A stretch of DNA of 64,000 nucleotides, taken from contig JAIBDQ010000001.1 in NCBI GenBank assembly GCA_024686135.1, positions 26,985-90,984 of the forward strand, read 5' to 3'. Position numbers and translations under genes: made by a program. Shown here one piece after another: positions 5,338 to 34,681 of this stretch (position 1 is its first letter; the number at the start of each line of letters is the position of its first letter). Below the pieces are notes generated by a model. The model searched no databases, was not told where the DNA came from, and saw only the letters and a list, made by a program, of their open reading frames with translations. The DNA is from Halobacteriovorax sp. GTDB lineage: Bacteria; Bdellovibrionota; Bacteriovoracia; Bacteriovoracales; Bacteriovoracaceae.

Positions 5338-6052
5338 TCTTTCTGGACGTTGTTACGAATGTTTTAGGTCTAAAAAGGCATGCCTTTGTTCGGATATAAA
5401 ATGTATTGAAACAAATACTAAGATAGTCATACTCATTCATCCTAAAGAGGCTAAAAAGCAAAGAGTTGGTACTGGAAGGTTAACCCAAAAAAGTCTTAAG
5501 AACTCTCAAATGATTATGGGAGTTGATTTTACAAATGATAATTTAGTTAATTCGTTAATTAACGATAAATCAAAAAAATGTTTTCTTCTTTATCCTGGAT
5601 TACAGGCAATCAACCTGAGTAAAAATGAAAGTTTTCCTAAAGAGTCTTCTAGAGAGAATGTTATATTTGTATTAGATGGAACCTGGCCTTGTGCTAAGAA
5701 AATGCTAAGAGAAAGCAAGAACTTGCAGGTATTACCGAGAGTCTGTTTTGATGCCAGTATACATTCACGATTTTCGATTAAGCATCAGCCTGCTCAAAAC
5801 TGTTTATCAACTATTGAGTCAGTTAGTTTTTTATTATCGGAACTAGAGCGTCAAAATATTGAGAAACTTAATGGCGGGGCTGAGATGATGGTAGAACTTC
5901 TAGATAAAATGGTTAAATATCAAAGGGATTGTGCCGCAAATCCAAGTACTCCTGGATATAGAAGAAAACCTTATTCTGTTCAATCACACCGCGAAAGTTT
6001 TATTAGGCCAAAGAGTAGGCTGTTTTTTTATGATGACAAAAACTTTTCCTAA
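5321..6052 (+). CDS. DTW-domain protein (tRNA-uridine aminocarboxypropyltransferase family)
   Basis: N-terminal CYEC...CLC zinc-type motif and a DGTW motif (VLDGTWPCAKKM). Overlaps the upstream gene by 17 nt. Confidence 0.75.
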   Translation: MTSSPDLSGRCYECFRSKKACLCSDIKCIETNTKIVILIHPKEAKKQRVGTGRLTQKSLKNSQMIMGVDFTNDNLVNSLINDKSKKCFLLYPGLQAINLSKNESFPKESSRENVIFVLDGTWPCAKKMLRESKNLQVLPRVCFDASIHSRFSIKHQPAQNCLSTIESVSFLLSELERQNIEKLNGGAEMMVELLDKMVKYQRDCAANPSTPGYRRKPYSVQSHRESFIRPKSRLFFYDDKNFS

Positions 6053-6157
6053 TACGGTGTTGCAAAGCAGTATTTAAAAATTAACGGACTTTGGCAGGAT
6101 CATGTCTTAACGAGTATGATTAATCCACTCGATTTTTAGGAGAGGTTATCAGTAGAT

Positions 6158-6535
6158 ATGAAGCGAAAGGATTTGAAATTATTAGTTTTAGATGACTCCA
6201 AAGAGTTTGTTTTTTTATTAACAGGCTTTTTATCATTTAAAGAAGTTCAGGTTGAAACTGAATCGGACCCACTCAAGGCCTTGTCTATGGCCGAAACAAC
6301 TAAGTTTGATTTGATCATCTCAGATTATTTAATGGATAAAATGGATGGCATTTCTTTTTCAGAAAAGATTAGGGGATCACAACTGAACTCAGAGACAAAA
6401 ATTATCTTACTCACAGCAAAGCACTTGGAAAATTCCGAAATATCAAAAGTTAATAAGCTGAACCTAGTGTACGTAAGTAAGCCCATACTCCCAAATGATT
6501 TGTATAAAAAAGTAATGGAGACAATTCAAAATTAA
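6158..6535 (+). CDS. single-domain response regulator (CheY-like receiver)
   Basis: 125 aa with canonical receiver residues by eye: LVLDD, DLIISD, LLTAK, SKP. Confidence 0.85.
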   Translation: MKRKDLKLLVLDDSKEFVFLLTGFLSFKEVQVETESDPLKALSMAETTKFDLIISDYLMDKMDGISFSEKIRGSQLNSETKIILLTAKHLENSEISKVNKLNLVYVSKPILPNDLYKKVMETIQN

Positions 6536-6593
6536 ATTTAAATACATCATTTTTTTTCTTATTGTTTCATGTGCTAAGGTTCCCTTAGAGCAT

Positions 6594-7376
6594 ATGTCTA
6601 TGAGTTCAATGACTCCTACAGATGATCCATCTGAATCAATTGGATATTATTCACTCGGCTGTCTTAAAGGTGGCGTGAGTCTTCCCCCTAATGGAGATGG
6701 TTTTCAAGTAATGAGACTTTCTAGAGGAAGATTCTGGGGACATCCAAACCTTATAAACTATCTAAAGCTGAGCTCTAAAAAAGTTTTAAATAAAACTGGG
6801 AAGCAGCTTTTGATTGGTGATTTAGGGCATGCGAAAGGTACACCTTCTTTAACAGGACATAACTCTCATCAGTCTGGTCTCGATGTCGATATTTGGTTTA
6901 AAACTATTGAAAAGGAAAAAGTACTCGACCTAGGAGAGAGGGAGCAAATTTGGGCGCCAAGTTTTTTAAGAAGTCCAGTTGAAGTAGATGAAAATAAGTG
7001 GAAAACGGAGCACTGGGAAATATTAAAGATATTAGTTTCAAATGAAGAAGTTCAAAGAATCTTTATTAATCCGGCAATTAAGAAAAAATTATGCTTAGAA
7101 AAGAAAAGTAAATTCACTCTTAAAGAAATGTCGAAGATTAGACCTTGGTATAGGCATGATGATCATTTTCATGTGCGTTTAAGATGTCCTAACGATTCTC
7201 CGAGTTGTACAACTCAAACAGAACCAAAACTAGACGATGGCTGTGGTAGTGAGCTTGATTGGTGGTTCACGGAGGAAGGGCAAGAGAAAATCGAGCCTTG
7301 GGATCATTACGCAAACTTTAAAAGTAAGAGAGAGAAGCTGCCTAAAGAGTGCAAAGAGATTTTAAAAATAGATTAA
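6594..7376 (+). CDS. mepA: penicillin-insensitive murein endopeptidase MepA; true start probably ATT 6531 (see findings)
   Basis: GHNSHQSGLDVDIW and HDDHFHVRL metal-binding motifs of peptidase family M74. The first ATG gives no signal peptide, but the upstream in-frame sequence encodes one. Confidence 0.85.
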   Translation: MSMSSMTPTDDPSESIGYYSLGCLKGGVSLPPNGDGFQVMRLSRGRFWGHPNLINYLKLSSKKVLNKTGKQLLIGDLGHAKGTPSLTGHNSHQSGLDVDIWFKTIEKEKVLDLGEREQIWAPSFLRSPVEVDENKWKTEHWEILKILVSNEEVQRIFINPAIKKKLCLEKKSKFTLKEMSKIRPWYRHDDHFHVRLRCPNDSPSCTTQTEPKLDDGCGSELDWWFTEEGQEKIEPWDHYANFKSKREKLPKECKEILKID

Positions 7377-8096
7377 TTACTTATAGGACTGAATAAGCGC
7401 CGGAATATCTTTTTGGCTTTTTAAATACAAGAGATCTCTATCTTGTTCGATAGTTTTCCAATCTTCAAAGCCAAGCTGTAAAGCTTCTTCAAATGCATTA
7501 TAGGCCATATCCGCATTCTTAATGATTGAATAAGCACATGCTAGATTATAACAACCAAAGGCTTCTTCAAGATCACAAGCCTTTCTGAAGTATTTTATCG
7601 CACCTTTATACTTTTGCTCTCCTAAGTAAAAATGACCGATCCTCTCGCATCCCGCTGCTTCCTCACCTTTACAAGCTTTATCTAAGTAAGGGAGAGCATC
7701 AGAAAGCATATTCATATTCGTATAGGCTTCGCCAACATAAAAACACGCAATAGTGCTGGCCGGGCAATGGGCCTTTCCAAACTTAATAGCACCTTCATTT
7801 TTACCAGTTCTAATAAAATACCAGCTTAAAACGACACACGCGCTTCTCGCCTTTTCTCCGCATTGTTTAACCAATGTTTGAAGCATTTCTTCAGAAACAT
7901 GCTCTGGGCCGAATTGATCAAGCTGATGCTGAAGCTCATCGCATCTAGCCTTGTTGGCAATATTCATATTACAAAGAAGGTGATATTTTTCCCAAGTGGA
8001 GTCAAAAGTGATGACTCCACTATTTTTTGATTCTTGCTTAGAACAAGAGCAAGATTGTAGGAACAATAAGAAAACTAATAATAGAAAATGCCTCAT
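7377..8096 (-). CDS. exported Sel1-like repeat (Hcp-type cysteine-rich SLR/TPR) protein
   Basis: Signal/lipobox-like N-terminus (LFLQSCSC). Repeated AC-x5-GC-x2-LG-x-Y type units (KACKGEEAAGCERIGHFY, KACDLEEAFGCYNLACAY). Confidence 0.7.
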   Translation of the reverse strand: MRHFLLLVFLLFLQSCSCSKQESKNSGVITFDSTWEKYHLLCNMNIANKARCDELQHQLDQFGPEHVSEEMLQTLVKQCGEKARSACVVLSWYFIRTGKNEGAIKFGKAHCPASTIACFYVGEAYTNMNMLSDALPYLDKACKGEEAAGCERIGHFYLGEQKYKGAIKYFRKACDLEEAFGCYNLACAYSIIKNADMAYNAFEEALQLGFEDWKTIEQDRDLLYLKSQKDIPALIQSYK

Positions 8097-8602: not shown

Positions 8603-10618
8603 ATGTCAAACCATTTAAATCTAACAGCTTTTTTGCTCATTTTGCAGTGCTTTTTTCAGCCTGGCCATGCCCAAGAAATTACAGGCAGTTTTGATCAAAG
8701 TGCGAGTGTTATGGTTTATGGAGAGCAGGAGCTTTCCGATGGTCTAATTGATGCCCCTGTAAAAGTAGAAGTTGTAGGGCAAGAACAAATTCAAAAACAG
8801 CAATACCAAGATTTATCAGAAACTATCTCTGGACTACCAGGGGTCACTACTGCCACAACTGACAGAAGGGCCGGAAGTAAGTCGGCCATGATTCAAGGTT
8901 TTGGTGAAAACTCCGTTCTTGTAATGATTGATGGAACACCCGTTTCTCAAAACAATAGTTTCGGCTTTGATCTTACCCAAATTCCTACTTCGGATATTGA
9001 AAAGGTAGAAGTCATAAAAGGTGGTGCTTCCTCTCTCTACGGATCACAGGCCATGGGTGGAGTCATCAATGTGGTTACCAAAAAAGTTGCCCCCAAAAAT
9101 AAAGTTGACCTTGAGGCTTCCGGTGGATGGGCCAATCAAGAGGGCGGGGGAAGTCGTAATATAAAAATAGGTGTTGATAGAAGGATTAAGAAACTAGGAA
9201 TTAAGGCTAACTTTAGTCACCGGGATCAAGACTCTTTTGATTTAGACCCCTCAACATTGGCAAAAGATGGGGCAGATTCAACTAGGCAACAGGCCAATTT
9301 AAAATTTCAGACAAAGTTTAGAGGTAGAACTTACTCTGTAAGTGGAATGTATCTAAGAGGAAAGGTTTTATCTCAAACCTCGAGACCCTATAGCTCAAGT
9401 GCATTTGGAGCCTCGTTAAATAAAACAGATAATGAGTCAAAGAACTTTAAGCTTGCTACAGAAGAAAAGCTCGGTAGTGGTACTTTAAAAACTAATCTTA
9501 ACTATGAAATTAATAACGACCAGCTAAGCTTGAATGATGATCCTAAAACTAGTTTTACGGAAACTCTAAAAGAAACTCGCTTTGAGGGCAGAAGAGTTGA
9601 TATTAAATACCGTGAGTTCAAGGTTAAAGATCATAGCTTAACTACTGGGCTCCTATTTACTGAAAATATAGTTGATCAAGAAACGACAACTCAGGCCGTA
9701 CCTGAAGTCATTATCAAAACAAGAGATATTGAAAACCGTTCTGTAAAATCATATGAAGGGTTTGTTCAAGATAATTTCTGGGTAGGTGACTTTGAAGCCT
9801 CTCCCGGAGTTCGCTATCAGTATGATAAAGACTTCGGAGCTCATGTATCACCAAAGGTTAATATTTCTCACTATACGGATATTGGTAGTGTCGGGTTAAA
9901 GACCTGGTTAACAGTAGGAACTGGTTATCGAGCCCCTTCTATAAAAGAAAGATTTTTCACTCTAGATCACTCTTCGGTTGCTAACTATGTTGTGATTGGG
10001 AATCAAAATCTTACTCCAGAAGAATCAATCAGTTTTCAAATAGGTGAAGAATTAAGGCTTTCATCGATTGGCAAAGGAACTTCTCTTTACGGTAACCTCT
10101 TTTTGAACAAGATTAGTAATTTAATTGAATCTGTTGAAAGAGAAGGGGACGGAAACGGAAGAGTCTTTAGTTATGACAATCTTGATAAAGTTATTAGTCG
10201 CGGAGTTGAGCTTGGAGTTAAGGGTGAGCTTTTTAAAAAGCTAAACCTAAAACTCAACGGTTCTTACACGGAAACTATCGACGAAAGAACGAATCTTCTC
10301 TTGGCCAATCGTCCACTTTACGCCGCGAACTTTACGGCCGGTTACCAGTTTACCGATTCTTTTTCTGCTATCAGTACGACTTCATATACCGGTAATAGTT
10401 TTGTTGATCTCGACAATAAGGCCATTAGCCCTGCCTATATGACCACCGACCTAAAGTTTAGCTACCAAGTGAATAAAGAATTTGGGACCTTTTTTAGCAT
10501 CAATAATCTTCTTGATGTCACAAAAGATCCGACTCCAGACTTGGTAAATCCCAAAGTCGACAATAGACCGGCTCTTGGACGAAATCTCTTTATGGGATTA
10601 AGGATGACGGTGCTTTAG
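8603..10618 (+). CDS. TonB-dependent outer-membrane receptor
   Basis: 671 aa. Signal peptide, plug-domain motifs (DGTPV, IEKVEVIKGGASSLYGSQAMGGVINVVTK), long beta-barrel region. C-terminus ends LFMGLRMTVL, not the classic aromatic residue. Confidence 0.9.
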   Translation: MSNHLNLTAFLLILQCFFQPGHAQEITGSFDQSASVMVYGEQELSDGLIDAPVKVEVVGQEQIQKQQYQDLSETISGLPGVTTATTDRRAGSKSAMIQGFGENSVLVMIDGTPVSQNNSFGFDLTQIPTSDIEKVEVIKGGASSLYGSQAMGGVINVVTKKVAPKNKVDLEASGGWANQEGGGSRNIKIGVDRRIKKLGIKANFSHRDQDSFDLDPSTLAKDGADSTRQQANLKFQTKFRGRTYSVSGMYLRGKVLSQTSRPYSSSAFGASLNKTDNESKNFKLATEEKLGSGTLKTNLNYEINNDQLSLNDDPKTSFTETLKETRFEGRRVDIKYREFKVKDHSLTTGLLFTENIVDQETTTQAVPEVIIKTRDIENRSVKSYEGFVQDNFWVGDFEASPGVRYQYDKDFGAHVSPKVNISHYTDIGSVGLKTWLTVGTGYRAPSIKERFFTLDHSSVANYVVIGNQNLTPEESISFQIGEELRLSSIGKGTSLYGNLFLNKISNLIESVEREGDGNGRVFSYDNLDKVISRGVELGVKGELFKKLNLKLNGSYTETIDERTNLLLANRPLYAANFTAGYQFTDSFSAISTTSYTGNSFVDLDNKAISPAYMTTDLKFSYQVNKEFGTFFSINNLLDVTKDPTPDLVNPKVDNRPALGRNLFMGLRMTVL

Positions 10619-10619
10619 G

Positions 10620-11783
10620 ATGAGTCACTTAAGTAAAACACTAATTCTTCTTTCTTTGCTATTTACCTTCTCTTGTAAAAAGATTGAGGAAAAACCCGTC
10701 TCTGACTCAAGACCGACGATCAATAGTTTTAGAGTTGCGCTTTCACCCTACGTAAAAGATCAATCTATAAACTTCTTCTTAGAGAACTCTTGGTATGCTT
10801 ACGATGAAGGCAATCATATTATCTGGCCTAACTTCAGAGTTTACGTGTTAAGAATTGATAGCAAATATTACAAGTTTCAAGTTGTCGATTACTACGACGA
10901 GGTCTCACGTCCTGGAAATTTCACCATAAGGGTTCAACCAGAGGGAGAAGAAAGTTATCTTCTGGACTTTAAGGCCGAAGGCTGTGGAAATGTTTATACA
11001 AATCCAAGCTATAAAGAATGTATTAAGAACCCAGAAACTAATGTCTATAGCTATATTGATTTGAATTCAAAAACGATAGAAAAACTTAGTGCAAAAGAAG
11101 CAAAGAATAATGCTGAGTGGGATATTGCTTTTAATGGTACGGATATAAAACTTAACTCTGGAAAAGATGGTCTTGGTTCCGTGAGGGCAGCCAATCTTTA
11201 TCTTTATGGAGGATTCTTTTCCGGTGATAAAATCAACTTTCAAAGAATTGCTGAAGAGTCTTTCGGATCTAGGGGAATTAGATTCTTTAATCAAAACTTT
11301 GATTATAGAAAGGCCGCTTTCTCTATTCCTGAAGGTCAAAATCGTGCCATCTTCGAGAATGACTGGTTTTCTCAAAACAGATCCACAAACTTCTTTGAGG
11401 CAAAATCCGAAAATTGGTGGATTGTTAGGGGCTCTGAAGCCAATACCTATTCAAAAATCAATATTAAAGAAATAAGTGAGCAGGAAATTGGAGAGCATAT
11501 CGAATCAAGGATAACTTTAGGGCTTTTTAATCAGTCAGAAGGTCAGAACGAATTCGGCTCTGAAGAAACATGGGAGTTACCAACCTTTTCAACGGCCAAA
11601 AGACTTATCAAGGTCTGCCTTGATTTAAATAAAAAAGAAGTGGTTCCATGTGGAAGCAATAAAGCTGATCTTCGTCTTTCCATGTCCAATAAATCAAAAC
11701 GCCGTTGGCGAATAAATGTCTTTAGTGGCGCTGTCGGGCCTCTTTCAAAATCAGAAATGCAAAACTGGATTCGCGGAAACTAA
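10620..11783 (+). CDS. HmuY-like lipoprotein partner of the TonB-dependent receptor
   Basis: Lipobox LLFTFSC. Starts 1 nt after the receptor stop. The EWDIAFNGTDIKLNSG segment resembles the WD(I/L)AF signature of HmuY-family proteins. Confidence 0.5.
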   Translation: MSHLSKTLILLSLLFTFSCKKIEEKPVSDSRPTINSFRVALSPYVKDQSINFFLENSWYAYDEGNHIIWPNFRVYVLRIDSKYYKFQVVDYYDEVSRPGNFTIRVQPEGEESYLLDFKAEGCGNVYTNPSYKECIKNPETNVYSYIDLNSKTIEKLSAKEAKNNAEWDIAFNGTDIKLNSGKDGLGSVRAANLYLYGGFFSGDKINFQRIAEESFGSRGIRFFNQNFDYRKAAFSIPEGQNRAIFENDWFSQNRSTNFFEAKSENWWIVRGSEANTYSKINIKEISEQEIGEHIESRITLGLFNQSEGQNEFGSEETWELPTFSTAKRLIKVCLDLNKKEVVPCGSNKADLRLSMSNKSKRRWRINVFSGAVGPLSKSEMQNWIRGN

Positions 11784-21303: not shown

Positions 21304-21951
21304 TTACTGATTTTGAGGGCGAATAGCCGAAAGCTTAACTCGCTTATCAATTAAAAGCTCCTGAACTCTTACCTGAAAAGCATCAGGCTCGTTATACTGA
21401 ATAAGCTTTGGGAGATTTAAAGAGAGAACTCTTCTAAAAGTGGGGAACTGCTTATCGCTAACACCCATTAGCTTTGCATAGTTTTTAAGAACTTCACCTC
21501 GTCCCTGCACCAAATTGCTTAAAATCTTTCTTTGATTTAGAAGAACAAACTTAATGATTTCAGCTTTTGGGCTGCTCATAGAGGTTCCTTTTCTTTTAAG
21601 GTCAATAAAGTAGCTACCTGGTTGATATTCAAGAAGGTGACCTGTTAAAGCATCGGTTCCCCAAGATAGAAATGAAGTACAATTAAATAAGGCGACACCA
21701 GAAACAGTTTTTTTAAGCTGAAACTTCTGACTATCATAACCTTCTTTTTTGATAGTTATATAATGCTTATCAAAAGTGGATCTTTTGAATTCCTTTGTAA
21801 AAGGAGTTACGCCAACCAGGTCCCCGTCGACATAAACATTGGCCCCAACAGGTTCCGATTTAAATGTAACCTTATCTTTACTTTTAGAAAATATTGTTGC
21901 GCAGCTACTGAGCAGGCTTAATAATAAAAGTGAAGTGATAACTGAGCGCAT
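21304..21951 (-). CDS. PEGA-domain lipoprotein
   Basis: Lipobox LLSSCA and a PEGA-like segment PVGANVYVDGDLVGVTP. Confidence 0.6.
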   Translation of the reverse strand: MRSVITSLLLLSLLSSCATIFSKSKDKVTFKSEPVGANVYVDGDLVGVTPFTKEFKRSTFDKHYITIKKEGYDSQKFQLKKTVSGVALFNCTSFLSWGTDALTGHLLEYQPGSYFIDLKRKGTSMSSPKAEIIKFVLLNQRKILSNLVQGRGEVLKNYAKLMGVSDKQFPTFRRVLSLNLPKLIQYNEPDAFQVRVQELLIDKRVKLSAIRPQNQ

Positions 21952-22015
21952 GTGGATATTCCCTATCTTTGAGCGCTAATATTGAACTAAATGTCAGAAA
22001 TCGTAAAGAAAGATT

Positions 22016-22267
22016 TTACCAAAGAACGTAAAGACCTTTAATAAGATCGTCGGGATGAAGCTCTTGAGATTCTACGAAGAGACTTTTGTATTCTTCGGAG
22101 GTTTTTGCGTGAACTTTTGAAAAGTAATTTAAGGGAAGGAAGCCTTTTTTACATTTTTGACAGCTATCCATTTCTTTTTTTCCCTCATTTAAAAAACCAC
22201 ACATATGACATTTCTTGAAAATAGTTTTGGTACTGGTCAATGTGGTTTTATAAGTTGAGTTACTCAT
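22016..22267 (-). CDS. small zinc-ribbon protein (hypothetical)
   Basis: 83 aa with CHMCG...CQKCK (two CxxC pairs). Has its own upstream region after a terminator. Confidence 0.5.
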   Translation of the reverse strand: MSNSTYKTTLTSTKTIFKKCHMCGFLNEGKKEMDSCQKCKKGFLPLNYFSKVHAKTSEEYKSLFVESQELHPDDLIKGLYVLW

Positions 22268-22315
22268 TGCTACTTAGCTATTCGAAACAATTGAAGGAAA
22301 TATTTAGGAAAAAGT

Positions 22316-22351
22316 GGAAAAAATTTCCGCTCTACGAGAAAGGTAGAGCGG
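22316..22351 (-). terminator. rho-independent terminator of the 504-aa coiled-coil gene
   Basis: CCGCTCTAC / GTAGAGCGG 9-bp stem with a 7-nt loop, followed on the minus strand by AAATTTTTT. Confidence 0.6.
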
Positions 22352-22364
22352 GTTAGTCGGCTAA

Positions 22365-23879
22365 TTAAAAGGCGAAATAGGCAGGGTTTCTTCCTGGTAC
22401 ATCAGGGGCAAACTGGCTAGAGGCCGATGGGGAGCCAAATCCCTGTCCTAAGGAGCCGTAGTAGCTATCCGGTCCTATCTCTCCCCAATATGTATTTTGT
22501 GGGTTACGGGCCGAATGATAGAGGAATGAGTCCATTCCTTGCTTTGGCATATAGTAGTAACTATTAACCTGTGTATTTCCTTGATTAAAATCAAATGGAC
22601 TTGCTCCAGGCTGGCTCCACATTTTATTCATCATGGCGAGTCTCATATAAGAGTTCCAGTCCACCATGCTTGAATCTGTTAGTGGATTTTGATTTACCAC
22701 TGGCATTTGCGGCGCAGGTGCTTGGTTGGCAAGCATTGCATACATCGTGAATTGCTTCATTAATGCTGCGATTTGCGCTTTCTCTTTTTTACGTTTTTCT
22801 GCCATATCTTCTTTTTCTTTTTTAAGGGCAGCAACTACTTTATCGATTTCTTTTTTATCTTCTTCAAAGTCGGTAACTTGCTTTTTTAATTCCTTAAGCT
22901 GTTTTTGTTGCTCGCATTCTGCAATTCTTAGGTCAGCAAGTTGAGCCCCCTGAGTTTCAATCTCTGTTGATTGTGAAGCTATTTTAGTTTCTTGCTCAGT
23001 AATCTTTGTATCTTGTTCTTCAATCTTCTTTTCTTTACTTTGAAGATCATCGCTTAAGGCAGCTACTTGAACTTCAAGACTGGTAATTTCGTCTTCAGCG
23101 AGACCTAATTCTTCATTAGTTAAGTTAAGCTCATCTTGAAGACCAGCAAATTCAGTTTTTAATCCTTCAAGTTCAGCTAGAGCATTTTCTTTAGCTTCTG
23201 TTTGAGAAGCAAGTTGCGCAGTAAGAGTTGCGATATCATTCTCTAGTTGCTCTTTAACTTTAGCGTGGTCTTTATTGGCAGTATCGAGGGCCAATAGCGC
23301 TTCTTTCTTAAGTAGTAATTCTTCATTAATTCTAGCGTCTCTAACTTCAATATCGGCAGCACGGCCTTCTTTTTCAGACTTTAGATTACTTTTGATGGCA
23401 GCGATGTCTGCTTCGAGTGCATTCTTTTCTTTGGCATGCATTTTCTTAACGGCAATCATATCAGACTGAAGGCGAGAACGTTCTTCATCTAGCTTTTTAA
23501 TATCGTTTAAGGCCAGGGCAATTATATGGGCAGCAGCACTATTCTTAGACTTTAAAGCAGCAACTTCTCTAGACTTCTTTTTTATCTCAGCATCTTTAGC
23601 TTTGATCTGCGCTTTAAGTTTAGCACTGTCATTTATGTACATACGTATTGATTCAACATAGCGCTTTCTTTTATAGATAAGTCCTAGGGGGGTAACAATT
23701 AGGATCTCTTCCTCAATCATTTTATCTTGAGCAACTGCAACTTCCGAAGCAATACCTCTAGAGGCAAGGGTGAGGCTGTGCTTGGCAGGGGTAGGTATTG
23801 TATTAACTGCATGTGAGACAAGACCCACGGCCACAAGGCAAAAGCAGTAAAAACCTAAACGCCATTTTGACATATTCAT
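22365..23879 (-). CDS. exported coiled-coil protein A with Met/aromatic/Gly-rich C-terminal module (unknown family)
   Basis: 504 aa. Hydrophobic N-terminus, about 300 aa of heptad-like K/E/A/L sequence, and a C-terminal module shared with ORF 24054-25124. SD GGAGAGAG precedes the ATG. Confidence 0.75.
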   Translation of the reverse strand: MNMSKWRLGFYCFCLVAVGLVSHAVNTIPTPAKHSLTLASRGIASEVAVAQDKMIEEEILIVTPLGLIYKRKRYVESIRMYINDSAKLKAQIKAKDAEIKKKSREVAALKSKNSAAAHIIALALNDIKKLDEERSRLQSDMIAVKKMHAKEKNALEADIAAIKSNLKSEKEGRAADIEVRDARINEELLLKKEALLALDTANKDHAKVKEQLENDIATLTAQLASQTEAKENALAELEGLKTEFAGLQDELNLTNEELGLAEDEITSLEVQVAALSDDLQSKEKKIEEQDTKITEQETKIASQSTEIETQGAQLADLRIAECEQQKQLKELKKQVTDFEEDKKEIDKVVAALKKEKEDMAEKRKKEKAQIAALMKQFTMYAMLANQAPAPQMPVVNQNPLTDSSMVDWNSYMRLAMMNKMWSQPGASPFDFNQGNTQVNSYYYMPKQGMDSFLYHSARNPQNTYWGEIGPDSYYGSLGQGFGSPSASSQFAPDVPGRNPAYFAF

Positions 23880-23917
23880 AACTCTCTCCAGTTTGAAATA
23901 ACTATGGTTTTAATAGA

Positions 23918-23932
23918 GCAAGTGGCGTGCCA
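23918..23932 (-). promoter_or_regulatory. sigma-54-type -24/-12 promoter of coiled-coil gene A
   Basis: Minus strand reads TGGCACGCCACTTGC, an exact match to TGGCACG-N4-TTGC. The element ends 38 nt upstream of the ATG. Confidence 0.6.
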
Positions 23933-23988
23933 ATTTTAAGGGGGTAACTAGTTGAATTTATCTTTGGGAATGGTAATTTTTATAAGGC

Positions 23989-24005
23989 TGTCTAAAATTT
24001 AGACA
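23989..24005. promoter_or_regulatory. 17-bp perfect palindrome TGTCTAAA-A-TTTAGACA (candidate activator/regulator site)
   Basis: 8+1+8 inverted repeat centred about 66 bp upstream of the -24 GG. Related copies at 25237-25253 and 33119-33135. Confidence 0.4.
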
Positions 24006-24053
24006 CCCCCATGCGCATACTATGGCAGCAGAGGGGTGTCTTATATTTATTGA

Positions 24054-25124
24054 TTAATTAAAGTCAAAAAATTCTGAACCAACATTTCCTCTGCCTGCAG
24101 TAGGAACTGTCTGAGTATAGTTTGTTCCATCTATCACTGGCATTAGCCTTGGCATAGATGAAGCAGCTGGGTTTCTAGATTCTAGGATAGAATTATCAAA
24201 GCTAGGAGCTTCAAATCCACCGCTAGTTCCGATTCCTGGATAACCACCAAACCCGTAACCCATACCAGATCCACCCAGGTAATAAGTGTTAACCTGTGAC
24301 CTTGGTGCAGCAGCTTGTGGTCTATTCATCATGGACATTAACATGAACATTGAGAAAGGATCATTTCCAGCAGGAGCTAAAAGAGCAGGGGGTGATACTT
24401 CAAAAAATGAGTTTTGTTGACCTTGAATATGGGCAAAAAGCTGAGCATAAGTCATAACGTCTGCGCTAAAACCAGCTTGGGCATCTACATCTACTTCAGC
24501 GTCTTCATCAACCTCTGCCACTACATCTTCTTTATCTTTAAGAAGCTCGGCGATTTGTCCTTTAATATCCTCTAGTAAACCTTTGTTTTCACAAATCCTT
24601 TCGCTAGTAGCTGCTAAGGCAGCCTTTTGCTCTAGAAGTTCTGTTTCTTGGGCCTTAGAGATTTTTAAATTAAGCTTTTCTTTAACTTCGGCTGGGTAGA
24701 AATCGACCATCTCTTTAACAAGAGCATCGAAAGCTGGTTTATTTTCGTGTTCTGCCTTATCTGAAAAGAAACTTCTAAAGTCAGCAGAACGTGTTAAAAG
24801 ACGTGTTCCTTCAACTCCAAGTTCCTCTACTTCTTCGTCTCTCATCTGGATCAATTCACTTAATCCCGTATCTTCTGCATCTAAACGATTATGAAACTTT
24901 GTTCTGAATTCCTTATGGGTTTCAACTAATTTTTTGAAAGAAGAAAGCTCTACATCAACATTTTCAGCTGTTACAGCCTCAAACTCAACTGCATTGGCGA
25001 TTGTTCTAAAGATAGATGGGCTCCAATTGCCTGCAACAGACGAATGGTCGTAAACCACATTAGATCCAAAGGTAAACCCTAAAACTGAAAGTGCGAGAGC
25101 ACCCTTTGCTAGCATGGACTTCAT
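24054..25124 (-). CDS. exported coiled-coil protein B, paralogue of A in its C-terminal module
   Basis: 356 aa. Signal peptide, acidic coiled-coil middle, C-terminal segments alignable with protein A (MMNRPQ/MMNKMW, QVNTYY/QVNSYY, RNPA). SD GAGGAGAG. Confidence 0.75.
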   Translation of the reverse strand: MKSMLAKGALALSVLGFTFGSNVVYDHSSVAGNWSPSIFRTIANAVEFEAVTAENVDVELSSFKKLVETHKEFRTKFHNRLDAEDTGLSELIQMRDEEVEELGVEGTRLLTRSADFRSFFSDKAEHENKPAFDALVKEMVDFYPAEVKEKLNLKISKAQETELLEQKAALAATSERICENKGLLEDIKGQIAELLKDKEDVVAEVDEDAEVDVDAQAGFSADVMTYAQLFAHIQGQQNSFFEVSPPALLAPAGNDPFSMFMLMSMMNRPQAAAPRSQVNTYYLGGSGMGYGFGGYPGIGTSGGFEAPSFDNSILESRNPAASSMPRLMPVIDGTNYTQTVPTAGRGNVGSEFFDFN

Positions 25125-25160
25125 AATTCTCTCCTCATTAATTTATATGAGAAATTAGTT

Positions 25161-25175
25161 ACAAGAGTCGTGCCA
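25161..25175 (-). promoter_or_regulatory. sigma-54-type -24/-12 promoter of coiled-coil gene B (imperfect -12)
   Basis: Minus strand reads TGGCACGACTCTTGT (TGGCACG-N4-TTGT), at the same spacing to the ATG as in gene A. Confidence 0.45.
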
Positions 25176-25187
25176 TACAGAAATACT

Positions 25188-25218
25188 GGAAATTATAAAA
25201 GGCTCGGTTGAGCCTTTG
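25188..25218 (-). terminator. rho-independent terminator of the small exported ORF
   Basis: AAAGGCTC-AACC-GAGCCTTT hairpin followed by TTATAATTT on the minus strand. Confidence 0.6.
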
Positions 25219-25255
25219 GTAAAAAAGAAATGGTGCTGTCTAAACTTTTTACGAA

Positions 25256-25582
25256 TTAAAGATTTGAAGTTGAGTCGTCATCTTCGTTAAATGCTTGATC
25301 CATAGCATTCATATTGTCTGTAAAAGTTTGTTGGATCTTTTTCATAAGCTCTAACTCATGTTGAACTCTAACTTGCTCAATTTTCTTTCTAAGCATAGCT
25401 TCAGTTCTCTTTTCGAGTTTTTCTCTAAAAGCTTTTCTTCTCTCAGAAGGGCTCATCGTACGGGCAGCATACTGGCCATCGATACCTATAATATCGTTGT
25501 TAACTCTTTGAACATTGTTCGAAGCGGCCAAAAGATTAGCTGAAAAGAAAAGAGTCACTATAAAGATAAATGGCTTATTCAT
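25256..25582 (-). CDS. small exported coiled-coil protein (hypothetical)
   Basis: Signal peptide MNKPFIFIVTLFFSANLLAA, then a charged helical region. ATG 25582 is preferred over the TTG 25594 of the ORF track. Confidence 0.6.
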   Translation of the reverse strand: MNKPFIFIVTLFFSANLLAASNNVQRVNNDIIGIDGQYAARTMSPSERRKAFREKLEKRTEAMLRKKIEQVRVQHELELMKKIQQTFTDNMNAMDQAFNEDDDSTSNL

Positions 25583-25680
25583 GTTGCATCCCAACGGTAA
25601 ATTCTAAAAATCGCCTCAATATAGTGAAGGGTGTCAAGTTTGTCTAGGAGGATTGTAGATAATGACTCAGCTAATCTTCG

Positions 25681-26082
25681 TCACTTTTTCTTAGGGTGCT
25701 GCTTTTGGATCTTTTCAATCTCAGAGAGGACCTTATTAAAGTTACCATCATTGATGATGATCTCATTTACCCCTGATTCCGCTAGGCTAGCTGCCATCTC
25801 ATCATCTGCCTCCGGTAGAATGGCCAAGATCGGCAATTCGTCACGCCCGTGAATATTACGGAGAAGTCCTACGATCTCTTCTGCTGGCATGTCTTCTGCC
25901 TCGTCCCCTTGGAGAATAACTAGGTCAAAAGGATGTTTTTCCACGAGATGGATGGCCTGAAAGCCTCCTCCTGCAAGTTCCACATTAAAGGCCTGCATTC
26001 TAAACCTTGAGCTGGTCTGCTTCTTGCGGGTGTCGTTCCCATCAATATAGAGAATATTATATTCTTCAGTTAGTGCTGACAT
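25681..26082 (-). CDS. stand-alone receiver-domain protein with degenerate phospho-acceptor pocket
   Basis: 133 aa from ATG 26082; the longer ORF-track version runs into tRNA-Gly. Receiver-like beta/alpha pattern, but hand alignment to CheY gives Q, L and N at the D57, T87 and K109 positions. Confidence 0.65.
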   Translation of the reverse strand: MSALTEEYNILYIDGNDTRKKQTSSRFRMQAFNVELAGGGFQAIHLVEKHPFDLVILQGDEAEDMPAEEIVGLLRNIHGRDELPILAILPEADDEMAASLAESGVNEIIINDGNFNKVLSEIEKIQKQHPKKK

Positions 26083-26126
26083 GGAGAGATTATCGCTAAA
26101 CTTAGATTTTGAGTAAAGAGGGAAAA

Positions 26127-26201
26127 TGGAGCGGCGACCGAGGGTCGAACTCGGGACCTTCTGCATGGCAAGCAGACGCACTACCACTGTGCTACCACCG
26201 C
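26127..26201 (-). tRNA. tRNA-Gly (anticodon GCC)
   Basis: 75-nt cloverleaf folded by hand. Acceptor GCGGTGG/TCGCCGC, D arm GCAC-AGTGGTA-GTGC, anticodon stem TCTGC/GCAGA with loop TTGCCAT, T arm CCGAG-TTCGACC-CTCGG, encoded CCA. Confidence 0.95.
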
Positions 26202-26257
26202 TCGATTAAAGGGATATTAATTATGGGTTGATTTTATGTCAATAATGTAATGGAGCG

Positions 26258-27064
26258 TTATTTTTTCCAGATTTTTTCTACCCATTCTGGGTGATCAATA
26301 AATGGGTTTCTATTTTTCTGAAACGTATATCCGCGATTATTTCTGTTTCTCTCGTGCTCACTTACAGGGTCCTGCTTATGCCACTTCAATAACATTCTTA
26401 CAAAGTGACCTTTGTAGACGCGGTCACGGCTACCATCTAGCCACTCGTGATGAAAGCTTTGGATTCGGTCTTCATATCTCGTGGCAAAATAAAGTAGTGA
26501 TCTTGCGATATCACCTTTGAATTCATCAATAGGTTCAAAAACTTTATTCCCAACATTTTCAAAAATATTTGTTCCTATTTTTGAGCCGTTCTTAGATGTC
26601 CATATTGCAACTTTTCCAACTTCACCAAAAGATAGGTGGCCTCTTCTATTGTTTACATATCCGTCTGAAGGATAAACGTGGAAGAAGTCTGAACGCATTG
26701 GTTTTCCTTTACTAAAGGAAGACTGAGGAAAGATATGTTCTCTATTGTAGCAGTCTGCTTCTTTCTTATAGTTTCCACATCTTTTTTTAGGAGAGTTAAA
26801 AATATAAGGATCTTTACCGTTTGGATTTTCAGAATACATATCAACAATAGAACCATCACCATCATAAGTCGTATCACGATCAGTTTCTTTGTAAGCATGA
26901 AATAGAGCGCCGTAGCTTTGTGATTTATGTGTTCGGGAGATGATTATTTTAAGGGCGGATTTTAATTGGTAGCCAGAGAGGCCTTCAACATTACTATAGT
27001 AATTTTTTGCTGCTATCGCTGAATTTGAAAATAAAACAGCAAAAATAATTATAAACTTATTCAC
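26258..27064 (-). CDS. secreted endonuclease I family nuclease (EndA/Vvn-like), paralogue 1
   Basis: Signal peptide. YNREHIFPQS, FEP..EFKGDIARSLLYF and NRNPFIDHPEW motifs. GTG start follows GAGGGG. Confidence 0.85.
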   Translation of the reverse strand: MNKFIIIFAVLFSNSAIAAKNYYSNVEGLSGYQLKSALKIIISRTHKSQSYGALFHAYKETDRDTTYDGDGSIVDMYSENPNGKDPYIFNSPKKRCGNYKKEADCYNREHIFPQSSFSKGKPMRSDFFHVYPSDGYVNNRRGHLSFGEVGKVAIWTSKNGSKIGTNIFENVGNKVFEPIDEFKGDIARSLLYFATRYEDRIQSFHHEWLDGSRDRVYKGHFVRMLLKWHKQDPVSEHERNRNNRGYTFQKNRNPFIDHPEWVEKIWKK

Positions 27065-33013: not shown

Positions 33014-33139
33014 ACTCATTTAAACTGGCACCCTCTGTGCACTATAGAACCCATATAAAGAAGTTTACTTCTTAAGATGCTGGAAATCAGTGTGGTCTTT
33101 GCGAGTATATTGGACCAGTGTCTAAACTTTAGACGGAAT

Positions 33140-33841
33140 ATGGGCATGCGTTTTATTGTTATTCTATATTTACTTATGAGCATCCAGTCAGCTCATGCAA
33201 TTTTTGGAACTTCTGAATTCCCTTCAGATCCTATTTCGGTCTTTGAATTAGGCGTATCACAGTTAGAGAGGAAGAATTTTAAAAAGGCAGTAAAGACTTT
33301 TGATCACTTTTTATCAAAGCATTCGAATCACGACCTTTTTCCTAAAGCAAAAGTAAAGTACGGAGACGCTCTCTATGGAAATGAGAAGTACTTAAAAGCG
33401 CTACGTGTTTACGAGAGATCCCACTTAGAATCACCTCATAGCGAAGATGGGGCTCACACTCTTTTTAGAATGGGTCAATGTAACTTAAGGTTTATTTCTA
33501 AAGATAAAGGACAAAAGCATATTCCCTATGCCATTGCGGCCTTTGAAAGGTTTCTAACTCTTTATCCAGAAAACGAAAAAGTTGAGCAGGCCAAGAGGAA
33601 TATTTTAGCTGTGAAAAAAGTTGAGGCTGAATATCAAATTGAGGTGGGGAACTACTATTTTAGACATAAGGACTACTGCGCCGCTTTTAATCATTTTGAA
33701 AAAGTTTTGAAAATGAAAGACTATGGAACCTATAAGTCTGTAGATACTTATATTGCAAAATGCCAAGCCAAAGAGACTTGTCTAGATGAACTTGCCGTTT
33801 GCGAGTTTGATCTTAGGGAAGTCAATTCTCGGATGAAATAA
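33140..33841 (+). CDS. BamD/YfiO-like TPR outer-membrane assembly factor
   Basis: Signal peptide MGMRFIVILYLLMSIQSAHA. TPR-like helices, with FERFLTLYPENEKVEQAK and EYQIEVGNYYF segments resembling BamD. An upstream ATG at 33077 is also possible. Confidence 0.55.
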   Translation: MGMRFIVILYLLMSIQSAHAIFGTSEFPSDPISVFELGVSQLERKNFKKAVKTFDHFLSKHSNHDLFPKAKVKYGDALYGNEKYLKALRVYERSHLESPHSEDGAHTLFRMGQCNLRFISKDKGQKHIPYAIAAFERFLTLYPENEKVEQAKRNILAVKKVEAEYQIEVGNYYFRHKDYCAAFNHFEKVLKMKDYGTYKSVDTYIAKCQAKETCLDELAVCEFDLREVNSRMK

Positions 33842-34681
33842 TTAAAAGTTTTTTATTCTATCAACTAGATTTGGGAAATCGATAAAAGGATTTCTATTCC
33901 TTTGGATTTCAAAAATTGTTTGGTTTCTTTCTCTTTCTTCAGCATCGACAGGGTCAATTTCATGCCACTGTCTTAGATAAGCTTCTTGATGTTCTGAAAT
34001 CTTGATTTGGTAACGAATTGAAAAATAAAATAAGGCTCTCGCAACATTACCTTTATGTTCCGTAGGTGGTTCGAAATAATCATAACTACCCTTGGGAGTG
34101 CCTGAGTAGGAAGCTGCACAGTCATTTTCAAGAGGGTCACCATTAACATTTGCGAACTCGTTATTTCCTCGAACACTATTAGCTCTACTATCAGTAGGAA
34201 ATAAATGGTGAAGGTCTGACTTTTGAAGACCTTTTGGAAATCTTCCAGAGAACTTTGACTGGGGCCAAGTATGCTCACAATTGATTTGGCTGTGATTTGG
34301 AATAATATTTGGTCCAACTTGAGTCTGAGAATTCGTAACCTTTCTTCTGCAGTAAACGTCTTTAATATAATATCCGTCAGCGTCTTCCTCTAAATGAAGC
34401 TTTCCAAAAAGAACTTTTCTAGCTCCTCTGTATCCAAGAGATCTTTGCTCGTAACAATTTCCTTTTGGACCTTCAGCACAAGAACTAACGATGACATCGT
34501 CACCTTTTTTGACTCTAATATGTTTCTTTTCAAGAACATTAAAGAGAATCTCTTTTAGTTCTTGTCCGTTAACACTGGTATTTTTAAATTGTTGCTTAGT
34601 AGCGGTTGGGTAGTAATGAGAAACTGCGATAGCTTCCTGTGCCAATAGTAAGAATACGCTTACGACTAGTAATAACTTCAA
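33842..34681 (-). CDS. secreted endonuclease I family nuclease, paralogue 2
   Basis: Signal peptide. CEHTWPQSKF, DLHHLFPTD, FEPP..HKGNVARALFYF and NRNPFIDFP motifs. TTG start follows AGAGAGG. Confidence 0.85.
   Translation of the reverse strand: MKLLLVVSVFLLLAQEAIAVSHYYPTATKQQFKNTSVNGQELKEILFNVLEKKHIRVKKGDDVIVSSCAEGPKGNCYEQRSLGYRGARKVLFGKLHLEEDADGYYIKDVYCRRKVTNSQTQVGPNIIPNHSQINCEHTWPQSKFSGRFPKGLQKSDLHHLFPTDSRANSVRGNNEFANVNGDPLENDCAASYSGTPKGSYDYFEPPTEHKGNVARALFYFSIRYQIKISEHQEAYLRQWHEIDPVDAEERERNQTIFEIQRNRNPFIDFPNLVDRIKNF

Follow-up and report, generated by a model that had tools for sequence, protein, structure and literature searches.

Two neighbouring genes on the minus strand of a 64,000-nucleotide stretch of Halobacteriovorax sp. 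DNA (contig JAIBDQ010000001.1, positions 26,985 to 90,984; hereafter the window) raise the question of what kind of proteins they encode and what switches them on. The initial annotation, made from the letters and open reading frames (ORFs) alone, described them as exported coiled-coil paralogues of no named family, each behind its own sigma-54-type promoter. Gene A (504 amino acids, aa) and its paralogue gene B (356 aa) are indeed found on the minus strand at 22365-23879 and 24054-25124, respectively. The best explanation as a whole, to which we give slightly more credence than doubt, is that A and B are sigma-54-controlled exported coiled-coil paralogues that act as an envelope scaffold or tether. 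Its regulatory part, i.e., dependence on sigma-54 and on an activator bound at a shared enhancer, is considered highly probable from the sequence comparisons presented below.

Whether A and B are related at all depends on the method of comparison. BLASTP of A against B aligns only the coiled-coil stretch (E 0.001), and a Smith-Waterman comparison of the two tails alone yields z = 1.27, with 61 of 500 shuffles scoring equally well. Since the pairwise tail comparison is too weak, homology was assessed with profiles. The underlying ortholog sets contain 10-12 homologues each among 5.8 billion clusters; all of these are full-length orthologues with 41-100% identity, and several A/B pairs are located on shared contigs. 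For the two ortholog alignments hhalign reports a probability of 98.2% and E 3.2e-14 over 153 collinear columns, which begin in a coiled-coil segment whose Cys is invariant (AECEQQ for A, ICENKG for B) and continue into the tail. The tails alone give a probability of 82-85% and E about 1e-5 over 63 columns, and their score of 38.7 is reached by none of the 200 column-shuffled controls (12.8 ± 2.6, maximum 25.4), which argues that the shared tail module is real. Thus, the C-terminal module that had been aligned by eye is significant in profile-profile comparison against shuffled controls, but not in pairwise comparison. Its blocks TMYAMLAN/MTYAQLFA, MMN, and QVNSYY are exactly covered by the 63 tail-only columns. 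The proposed pairing of the RNPA motifs, however, is doubtful as a positional match: the joint alignment places GRNPA-YFAF of A on GRGNV..FFDF of B, not on SRNPAA. Taken together, the profile comparisons support A and B as paralogues, which probably arose by an old tandem duplication within a family restricted to Halobacteriovoraceae.

The common build suggested for the two proteins is present as well: each starts with a hydrophobic segment at its N-terminus, continues into a helical region, and ends in a low-charge tail rich in Met, Gln, aromatic residues, and Gly. Both N-termini have a basic start and then a hydrophobic stretch of 12-14 residues. In A, this segment carries S-H-A at positions -3 to -1 and is followed by an R-G-I-A-S motif, a beta hairpin (residues 58-71), a coiled-coil rod of ~300 residues containing the invariant Cys, and a tail of 128 residues (9% charged) with the C-terminal end RNPAYFAF. 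In B, the hydrophobic segment is followed by an FRTIANAV motif, a helical region (56-201) with the corresponding Cys, an acidic linker, and a Met/Gly/Phe/Tyr-rich tail with C-terminal FFDFN. The rods are 39% charged versus 9-10% for the tails, which contain 13-16% aromatic residues, 7-8% Met, and 9-10% Pro. AlphaFold2 models based on shallow alignments of 11-12 sequences (mean predicted local distance difference test score, pLDDT, of 56-62) show an N-terminal helix (4-27), a small hairpin (58-71), and a nearly continuous helix (72-381) in A, and helices over 56-201 in B. The tails of both proteins have pLDDT <50, and beta strands are predicted in neither of them.

According to the majority fraction of aligned residues, the best-conserved part of both proteins is the N-terminal hydrophobic segment (residues 1-24 of A and 1-21 of B), with values of 0.78 for A and 0.90 for B compared with 0.59 and 0.66 for the helical regions. 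The A tail (0.75) is also more conserved than the A rod. Such conservation makes a discarded signal peptide or a random disordered tail unlikely, and the N-terminal segment is probably kept as an anchor or specifically recognised. Rod indels in A comprise 7, 21, 35, and 42 residues, which keep the heptad register, plus one of 50; these lengths fit the expectation for a coiled coil. The helical part of B has a fixed length. The Cys is invariant across the A and B families and in the distant relatives inspected, and together with the conserved tails it suggests covalently stabilised dimers that engage an outer-layer partner. A family-wide motif, [FWY]R-x-[IVP]-A-S, follows the hydrophobic segment (residues 41-46 of A and 39-46 of B) and is possibly a sorting or processing signal.

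As for the range of the family, only 25 proteins at E ≤1e-3 are retrieved when 1.84 billion representatives are searched with a profile built jointly from the C-terminal halves. This profile recovers the A and B families and about 20 further proteins, of which the inspected ones share the same build; the named members retrieved are labelled 'Halobacteriovoraceae bacterium'. The core of the inspected members consists of a hydrophobic N-terminus, the [FWY]R-x-[IVP]-A-S motif, a coil with Cys-Glu-[Asn/Gln], a charged linker, a Met/Gln/Tyr/Phe/Gly tail, and an aromatic F-x-F C-terminus, the C-terminal signature being R-x-P-A-[YF]-F-x-[FY] in A-type and RGNG..F.F in B-type proteins. A-type proteins span 187 to 562 aa, and the short ones (187-245 aa) retain every core part; the rod thus appears to be a spacer of free length. 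Searches of A, B, and their shared C-terminal half against Pfam-A and NCBIfam return nothing above the cutoff, only sub-threshold coiled-coil noise. The best match in a profile search of PDB has E 0.02 and falls in the coil, and the best Foldseek match against PDB has E 0.39. The statement that the module belongs to no named family is therefore borne out in Pfam, NCBIfam, PDB profiles, and Foldseek. As far as these searches reach, the protein family is undescribed and restricted to one predatory lineage, Halobacteriovoraceae.

The second part of the question is how the two genes are controlled. The promoter motifs TGGCACGCCACTTGC (23918-23932) and TGGCACGACTCTTGT (25161-25175) pointed out in the initial annotation are the sole matches to TGGCAC-N5-TTGY in the window (2 observed versus 0.09 expected; none of 100 shuffles reaches that number). 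The full sigma-54-type -24/-12 element of A, TGGCACGCCACTTGCT (23917-23932, minus strand), starts 53 nucleotides (nt) before the ATG and satisfies the -24 GG / -12 GC rule with a gap of exactly 10 nt in full (GG-N10-GC). That of B, TGGCACGACTCTTGTA (25160-25175, minus strand), starts 51 nt before the ATG and has the form GG-N10-GT.

Related loci were collected for comparison, three and two of them from scans of genome and metagenome contigs, respectively, and most others via exact-protein look-ups. In those of 10-21 kb, the strict sigma-54 motif is found only upstream of B and of A; the A site of L006 has one mismatch and is caught by a relaxed pattern only. Both elements are in place in every related locus holding upstream DNA, down to 44-46% protein identity, with a motif-to-ATG distance of 48-57 nt, and they stand out as invariant blocks in otherwise diverged intergenic alignments from at least seven lineages. 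In the alignment of the A upstream regions, the spacer varies between fixed TGGCAC and TTGCTCT blocks, as is characteristic of a -24/-12 promoter; counting the distant lineage L013, eight lineages keep the two elements but differ in the spacer. For B, the whole 16-nt block TGGCACGACTCTTGTA is invariant in seven aligned loci with B-protein identity down to 46%, and neither its spacer GACTC nor its non-canonical -12 GT is exempt. This hints that the block is more constrained than sigma-54 binding alone should impose and that an additional or different protein may bind it. The B elements are kept in all lineages examined, with the variants TGGCATCTCGTTTGTA in L013 and TGGCCTCATATTTGTA in another distant lineage, L017; together with TGGCACCATTTCTGCA, these variants show that the distant lineages keep GG-N10-G[CT]. 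In L013 the A-like and B-like genes each have a sigma-54-type element of their own, and in L017 a short A-like gene follows the B-like gene after 19 nt, as in an operon. A sigma-70 promoter was considered as an alternative driver of A and B and was rejected, as neither intergenic region contains a candidate. A separate -24/-12 element for each gene, as initially proposed, is thus well supported by the conserved footprint.

The start regions and the 3' ends of the genes are consistent with separate transcription. The Shine-Dalgarno (SD)-start blocks described earlier as nearly identical, GGAGAGAGTTATG of A (23877-23889, minus strand) and GGAGAGAATTATG of B (25122-25134, minus strand), are one base apart. 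Each gene had also been credited with its own hairpin terminator. Hairpins are indeed present after both; the one after A (22327-22351, minus strand) is a canonical intrinsic terminator with a 9-bp stem and a T-run, whereas the T-run after B is weak. The stem-loop after B (24001-24041, minus strand; folding free energy -24.4 kcal/mol, z -4.5) has 14 pairs, 2 of them with compensatory changes and none broken in seven taxa. Its loop is also conserved (CTGCTGCCA...GCGCA). A search of 21900-26400 against Rfam finds tRNA only, so this hairpin does not belong to a known RNA family. One more terminator-like hairpin (25198-25217, minus strand) follows the small ORF C located upstream of B.

What is new in comparison with the initial annotation is a palindrome upstream of A, and its recurrence together with a third sigma-54-type promoter at a BamD-like gene. 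The first copy, TGTCTAA-N3-TTAGACA (TGTCTAA-ATT-TTAGACA), is perfect, is located at 23989-24005, and represents a candidate enhancer (upstream activating sequence). Its right arm begins 63-64 nt upstream of A's TGGCAC, and its left arm shares bases with the 3' arm of the B hairpin. In L013 the sequence TGTCTAA-AGC-TTAGACA is again found 63 nt from TGGCAC, and in two lineages the spacing is 74 nt, i.e., one helical turn more. Upstream of B, a conserved half-site, TTTAGACAG (25236-25244, minus strand), lies 68 nt from B's TGGCAC, separated from the -24 element by the hairpin of ORF C; the full palindrome there (25237-25253) has 3 mismatches, and the right arm alone is retained. If one mismatch is allowed, the window contains two copies of the palindrome (0.04 expected), both within about 100 nt of sigma-54-type elements. 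A bipartite site TTTAGACAG-N-TTACCA was also tried and rejected, its internal spacing being 11 nt at A and 13 nt at B; hence, the TTTAGACAG block is read as one arm of TGTCTAA-N3-TTAGACA. An IHF-like (integration host factor) sequence, ATTCAACTAGTTA (23945-23957, minus strand), is located between the palindrome and A's -24, with one mismatch to WATCAANNNNTTR and a perfect match in L011. It is not counted as evidence, since the pattern is too common in AT-rich DNA.

The BamD-like gene (33140-33841, plus strand) lies 9 kb from A and encodes a 233-aa tetratricopeptide repeat protein with a signal peptide. The protein scores 91.8 bits against NCBIfam TIGR03302 (cutoff 81.4), and its N-terminus, MGMRFIVILYLLMSIQSAHA, has no Cys and hence no lipobox. 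The third sigma-54-type element, TGGCACCCTCTGTGCA (GG-N10-GC; 33026-33041, plus strand), is found ~100 nt upstream of the gene, and its TGGCAY-N6-TGCA is invariant in four lineages. The second copy of the palindrome, TGTCTAAACTTTAGACG (33119-33135), has one mismatch and is located downstream of this promoter, just before the ATG. The left arm of the palindrome and the promoter are conserved in the three orthologous loci fetched. Since the same site and promoter type precede the BamD-like gene, it is possibly co-regulated with A and B, which would then probably belong to a small envelope regulon. For the same reason the control of A and B, initially called dedicated, is probably not so.

The layout resembles classical sigma-54 promoters (glnAp2/NtrC, nifH/NifA, and the flagellar promoters of FleQ/FlrC), which have the same GG-N10-GC -24/-12 element without -35/-10 boxes, the same kind of palindromic site ~65-70 nt upstream of -24, and possibly an IHF-like site between the two, as ATTCAACTAGTTA here. 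The differences are the absence of a nearby activator gene and the GT in B's -12 element. The NifA site is TGT-N10-ACA. Relative to this site and to the proposed FleQ box (GTC-N8-GAC), the palindrome described here (TGT-N11-ACA, or GTC-N9-GAC) has one additional base. The regulatory design is a textbook one, and the evidence points to an uncharacterised component, not to a new mechanism.

If these signals are read together, A and B would form separate monocistronic transcription units here, each with its own 3' hairpin and a sigma-54-type element ~25-30 nt upstream of a strong SD, without a sigma-70-type promoter. Their transcription would most likely need a distant AAA+ enhancer-binding protein, the gene for which would lie outside the window. 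This activator is predicted to bind TGTCTAA-N3-TTAGACA ~64-68 nt upstream of -24 (the full site at A, the half-site at B) and to contact the closed sigma-54 holoenzyme via DNA looping, and the small envelope regulon with the BamD-like gene would probably be switched on and off as a whole. As for the initial remark that the window encodes no AAA+ activator, the Sigma54_activat domain is not found in the scanned window ORFs, which include about 45 of the 58 ORFs of at least 150 aa, and the neighbouring loci have yielded no activator gene either. Halobacteriovorax marinus SJ does carry rpoN (PMC3526173), and FlrA-type sigma-54 activators have been reported for its clade (PMC13147790). A literature search found no Halobacteriovorax transcriptome paper.

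The proteins themselves would be exported through Sec, with the positive N-flank suggesting an N-in orientation, which would place the remainder in the periplasm or farther out. After the N-terminal hydrophobic segment, which is likely either to stay on as an anchor or to be recognised specifically, comes the rest of a conserved core, i.e., the R-x-[IP]-A-S-E motif, a short coil with an invariant Cys-Glu-Asn/Gln, and a low-charge Met/Gln/Tyr/Phe/Gly tail ending in F-x-F. A and B are most likely coiled-coil dimers, either homodimers or A-B heterodimers, and possibly disulphide-linked. Their sticky tails may engage the outer membrane, the wall, or a partner. We thus infer that A and B are envelope structural proteins, and a generic envelope scaffold or tether is the preferred function among the options considered.

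Among known systems, TolA and TonB offer a similar arrangement of a conserved N-terminal anchor, an extended spacer through the periplasm whose length varies, and a C-terminal part in contact with partners at the outer membrane. However, no homology to them is detected, no ExbBD/TolQR genes adjoin A and B (except for MotAB in one related locus, L003), and their SHLS-type anchor motif is not conserved here, the His of A's S-H-A being Asn in orthologues. Crescentin, FilP, and Bdellovibrio CcrP share the head-rod-tail layout and the heptad-preserving rod indels, but they are cytoplasmic, have no N-terminal hydrophobic export segment, and show no detectable homology to A or B.

Several observations weigh against the scaffold explanation. 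On the regulatory side, neither rpoN nor an activator gene is found in the window, and B's -12 element reads GT instead of the canonical GC, although its GG and spacing are correct. B also has only one good palindrome arm, and its spacing of 68 nt is out of phase with the 64 nt of A. At the BamD-like gene the palindrome is located downstream of the promoter and overlaps the SD region, so it could be an operator or an RNA hairpin instead. On the protein side, the S/T-x-A and G-x-S sites are compatible with a cleavable signal peptide, and the invariant Cys is, by eye, at a heptad b position, which is a poor fit for an in-register disulphide. With low-confidence prediction from 11-12 sequences, disordered tails look the same as tails that are folded but unpredictable. 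Finally, nothing links A and B to any particular envelope structure.

The alternative that survives best assigns A and B to the flagellum, as a lineage-specific periplasmic accessory or scaffold of the sheathed polar motor, expressed in the sigma-54 tier under an activator of the FlrA/FleQ or FlrC type. In Peredibacter, Bacteriovorax, and Halobacteriovorax, sigma-54 is discussed together with FlrA (PMC13147790), and the build of an N-terminal membrane helix, a long dimeric coiled coil, and a C-terminal head is that of the periplasmic collar/E-ring protein FlbB and, as parallel dimers, of FlgY and MotE (PMC13023049). The head of these proteins, however, is ARM-like and globular, whereas A and B end in a low-complexity tail rich in aromatic residues and Met; neither sequence nor profile similarity is detected, and no MotE/FlbB model or any other flagellar model of Pfam or NCBIfam matches. 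The palindrome is similarly ambiguous. The proposed FleQ box GTCaNTAAAtTGAC (PMC6120874) resembles GTCTAAAwTTTAGAC, but with GTC-N9-GAC against GTC-N8-GAC the resemblance is a lead and not an assignment. For FleQ, a site downstream of the promoter has been reported (reference 10 of PMC6120874), and the upstream position at A and B and the downstream one at the BamD-like gene would fit FleQ; the presumably co-regulated BamD-like gene itself, however, is not flagellar. As for the genomic context, a CheY-like pseudo-receiver gene adjoins the pair, a PilZ gene lies 8 kb away, and in L003 motA and motB are directly upstream of the cluster. This linkage is seen in one lineage only, motAB there have no sigma-54 motif, and flagellar genes are missing from the window and from most of the related loci. 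Overall, the flagellar explanation is regarded as unlikely.

Somewhat less likely still are surface or secreted fibrils, either prey-attachment adhesins or prey-delivered proteins, whose aromatic tail would serve as an outer-membrane anchor or targeting signal. With a signal sequence, a coiled-coil stalk of freely variable length, and a ~130-residue low-charge C-terminal region rich in Gly, Tyr, Phe, Ser, and Asn that ends in F-x-F, A and B loosely resemble YadA-type trimeric autotransporter adhesins, which also end in an aromatic residue, and, at their C-termini, outer-membrane proteins. In the latter, BamD recognises a C-terminal signal, and both the presumed co-regulation with a BamD-like gene and the confinement of the family to a predatory lineage would suit such fibrils. 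Yet neither YadA_anchor nor any other autotransporter model matches, the AlphaFold2 tails contain no strands, and their Pro and Met content is atypical for barrels. The strongly conserved N-terminal segment also favours a retained anchor over a discarded signal peptide.

That the TGGCAC-N5-TTGY motifs are not working sigma-54 promoters at all but, e.g., a repressor site, with A and B read from an upstream sigma-70 promoter or by read-through, is very improbable: B's non-canonical GT, the invariance of its 16-nt block including a spacer that sigma-54 itself does not require, and the lack of rpoN and an activator gene in the window would be accommodated, but the chance expectation of 0.09 per window, the fixed GG and TTG next to a varying A spacer, the hairpins between C and B and between B and A, the missing sigma-70-like sites in both intergenic regions, and the constant distance to the ATG all speak against it.

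A generic scaffold or tether thus remains preferred. A bolder version, which is tentative and has about as little probability as the flagellar explanation, would make A and B the founding members of an undescribed envelope apparatus of the marine predatory Halobacteriovoraceae. In this apparatus, disulphide-linked coiled-coil tethers or fibrils would present their conserved N-terminal anchor, the R-x-I-A-S motif, and the aromatic F-x-F tail to dedicated partners, possibly the BamD-like protein, and a sigma-54 activator would turn them on jointly with the assembly of the outer membrane during a particular phase of the predatory cycle, e.g., progeny maturation, sheath building, or prey attachment.

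Among marine bacteria that feed on other bacteria, Halobacteriovorax is the main group, and both its gene regulation and its lineage-specific envelope structures are barely known. The conserved sigma-54-type promoters, three in number and in two cases accompanied by a common palindromic site, could be used to find the activator and to define the regulon, and the compact family with its clear core of anchor, Cys-containing coil, and aromatic tail is suited to localisation and deletion studies. Sigma-54 control of a BamD-like gene in this lineage is hinted at as well. If A and B belong to the flagellar sheath or motor or to the prey-attachment machinery, a new structural component would be added to it; otherwise, they are a well-behaved case of classical sigma-54 control over genes without an assigned function.

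Regarding the surroundings of the pair, the order on the minus strand in the direction of transcription is tRNA-Gly(GCC), the receiver-like ORF, ORF C, B, A, a zinc-ribbon ORF, a PEGA/DUF3015 lipoprotein gene, apt, and recJ. The small exported ORF and the degenerate receiver ORF that the initial annotation placed directly upstream are both found. ORF C (25256-25582, minus strand) encodes a small exported helical protein of 108 aa and is syntenic; its interpretation as a truncated third paralogue was rejected, since hhalign detects no paralogy (probabilities of 2% and 0.5%). Sigma-70-like sites precede ORF C, the receiver gene, and the tRNA gene, and no sigma-54-like signal is found at ORF C or the receiver gene.

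The mechanically called receiver-like ORF of 168 aa (region 25681-26201) runs into tRNA-Gly(GCC) (26127-26201, minus strand), and its true start is therefore taken to be the ATG at 26082. The resulting stand-alone protein of 133 aa (25681-26082, minus strand) has syntenic counterparts in Halobacteriovorax and L017. Its Pfam Response_reg score is 28.3 bits, under the cutoff of 30.2, and BLASTP yields no alignment with CheY. Visual inspection shows Gln, Leu, and Asn in place of Asp57, Thr87, and Lys109, which makes the label of a degenerate receiver fair; with this score and the phospho-acceptor residues not kept, the protein falls outside Response_reg. On the other side of the pair, the 83-aa CxxC...CxxC zinc-ribbon protein (22016-22267, minus strand) is always encoded between the A-type gene and recJ, L013 and L017 included.

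In the Halobacteriovorax loci the order receiver, C, B, A, zinc ribbon, (DUF3015), recJ is retained, and the distant lineages L013 and L017 retain the order B-like, A-like, zinc ribbon, recJ; the tandem A/B pair is present wherever a locus extends sufficiently far upstream. The closest public relatives are Halobacteriovorax metagenome-assembled genomes (MAGs) with 90% identity, and one protein identical to B is present in a public collection. A whole Halobacteriovorax-type locus with the same promoters and 48% identity to A is also found in L004 (JBLHVN010000002.1), a 1.27-Mb contig labelled as a 'Sulfitobacter sp.' MAG; the label is probably wrong, or the contig is mis-binned. In L003, the segment directly upstream of the receiver-C-B-A cluster (5374-7501) contains motA, motB, and a 201-aa ORF, the only flagellar linkage seen. 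In L013, a further sigma-54-like element, TGGCATAGGGATTGCT (7695-7710, minus strand), faces a divergent 406-aa lipoprotein gene (6435-7655) beside the B-like gene.

Elsewhere in the window, two Endonuclease I (PF04231) paralogues are encoded on the minus strand less than 8 kb apart, one beside tRNA-Gly (26258-27064) and the other beside the BamD-like gene (33842-34681). On the plus strand, a TonB-dependent receptor gene followed by one for an HmuY-like protein (8603-11783) likely represents a haem-uptake pair.

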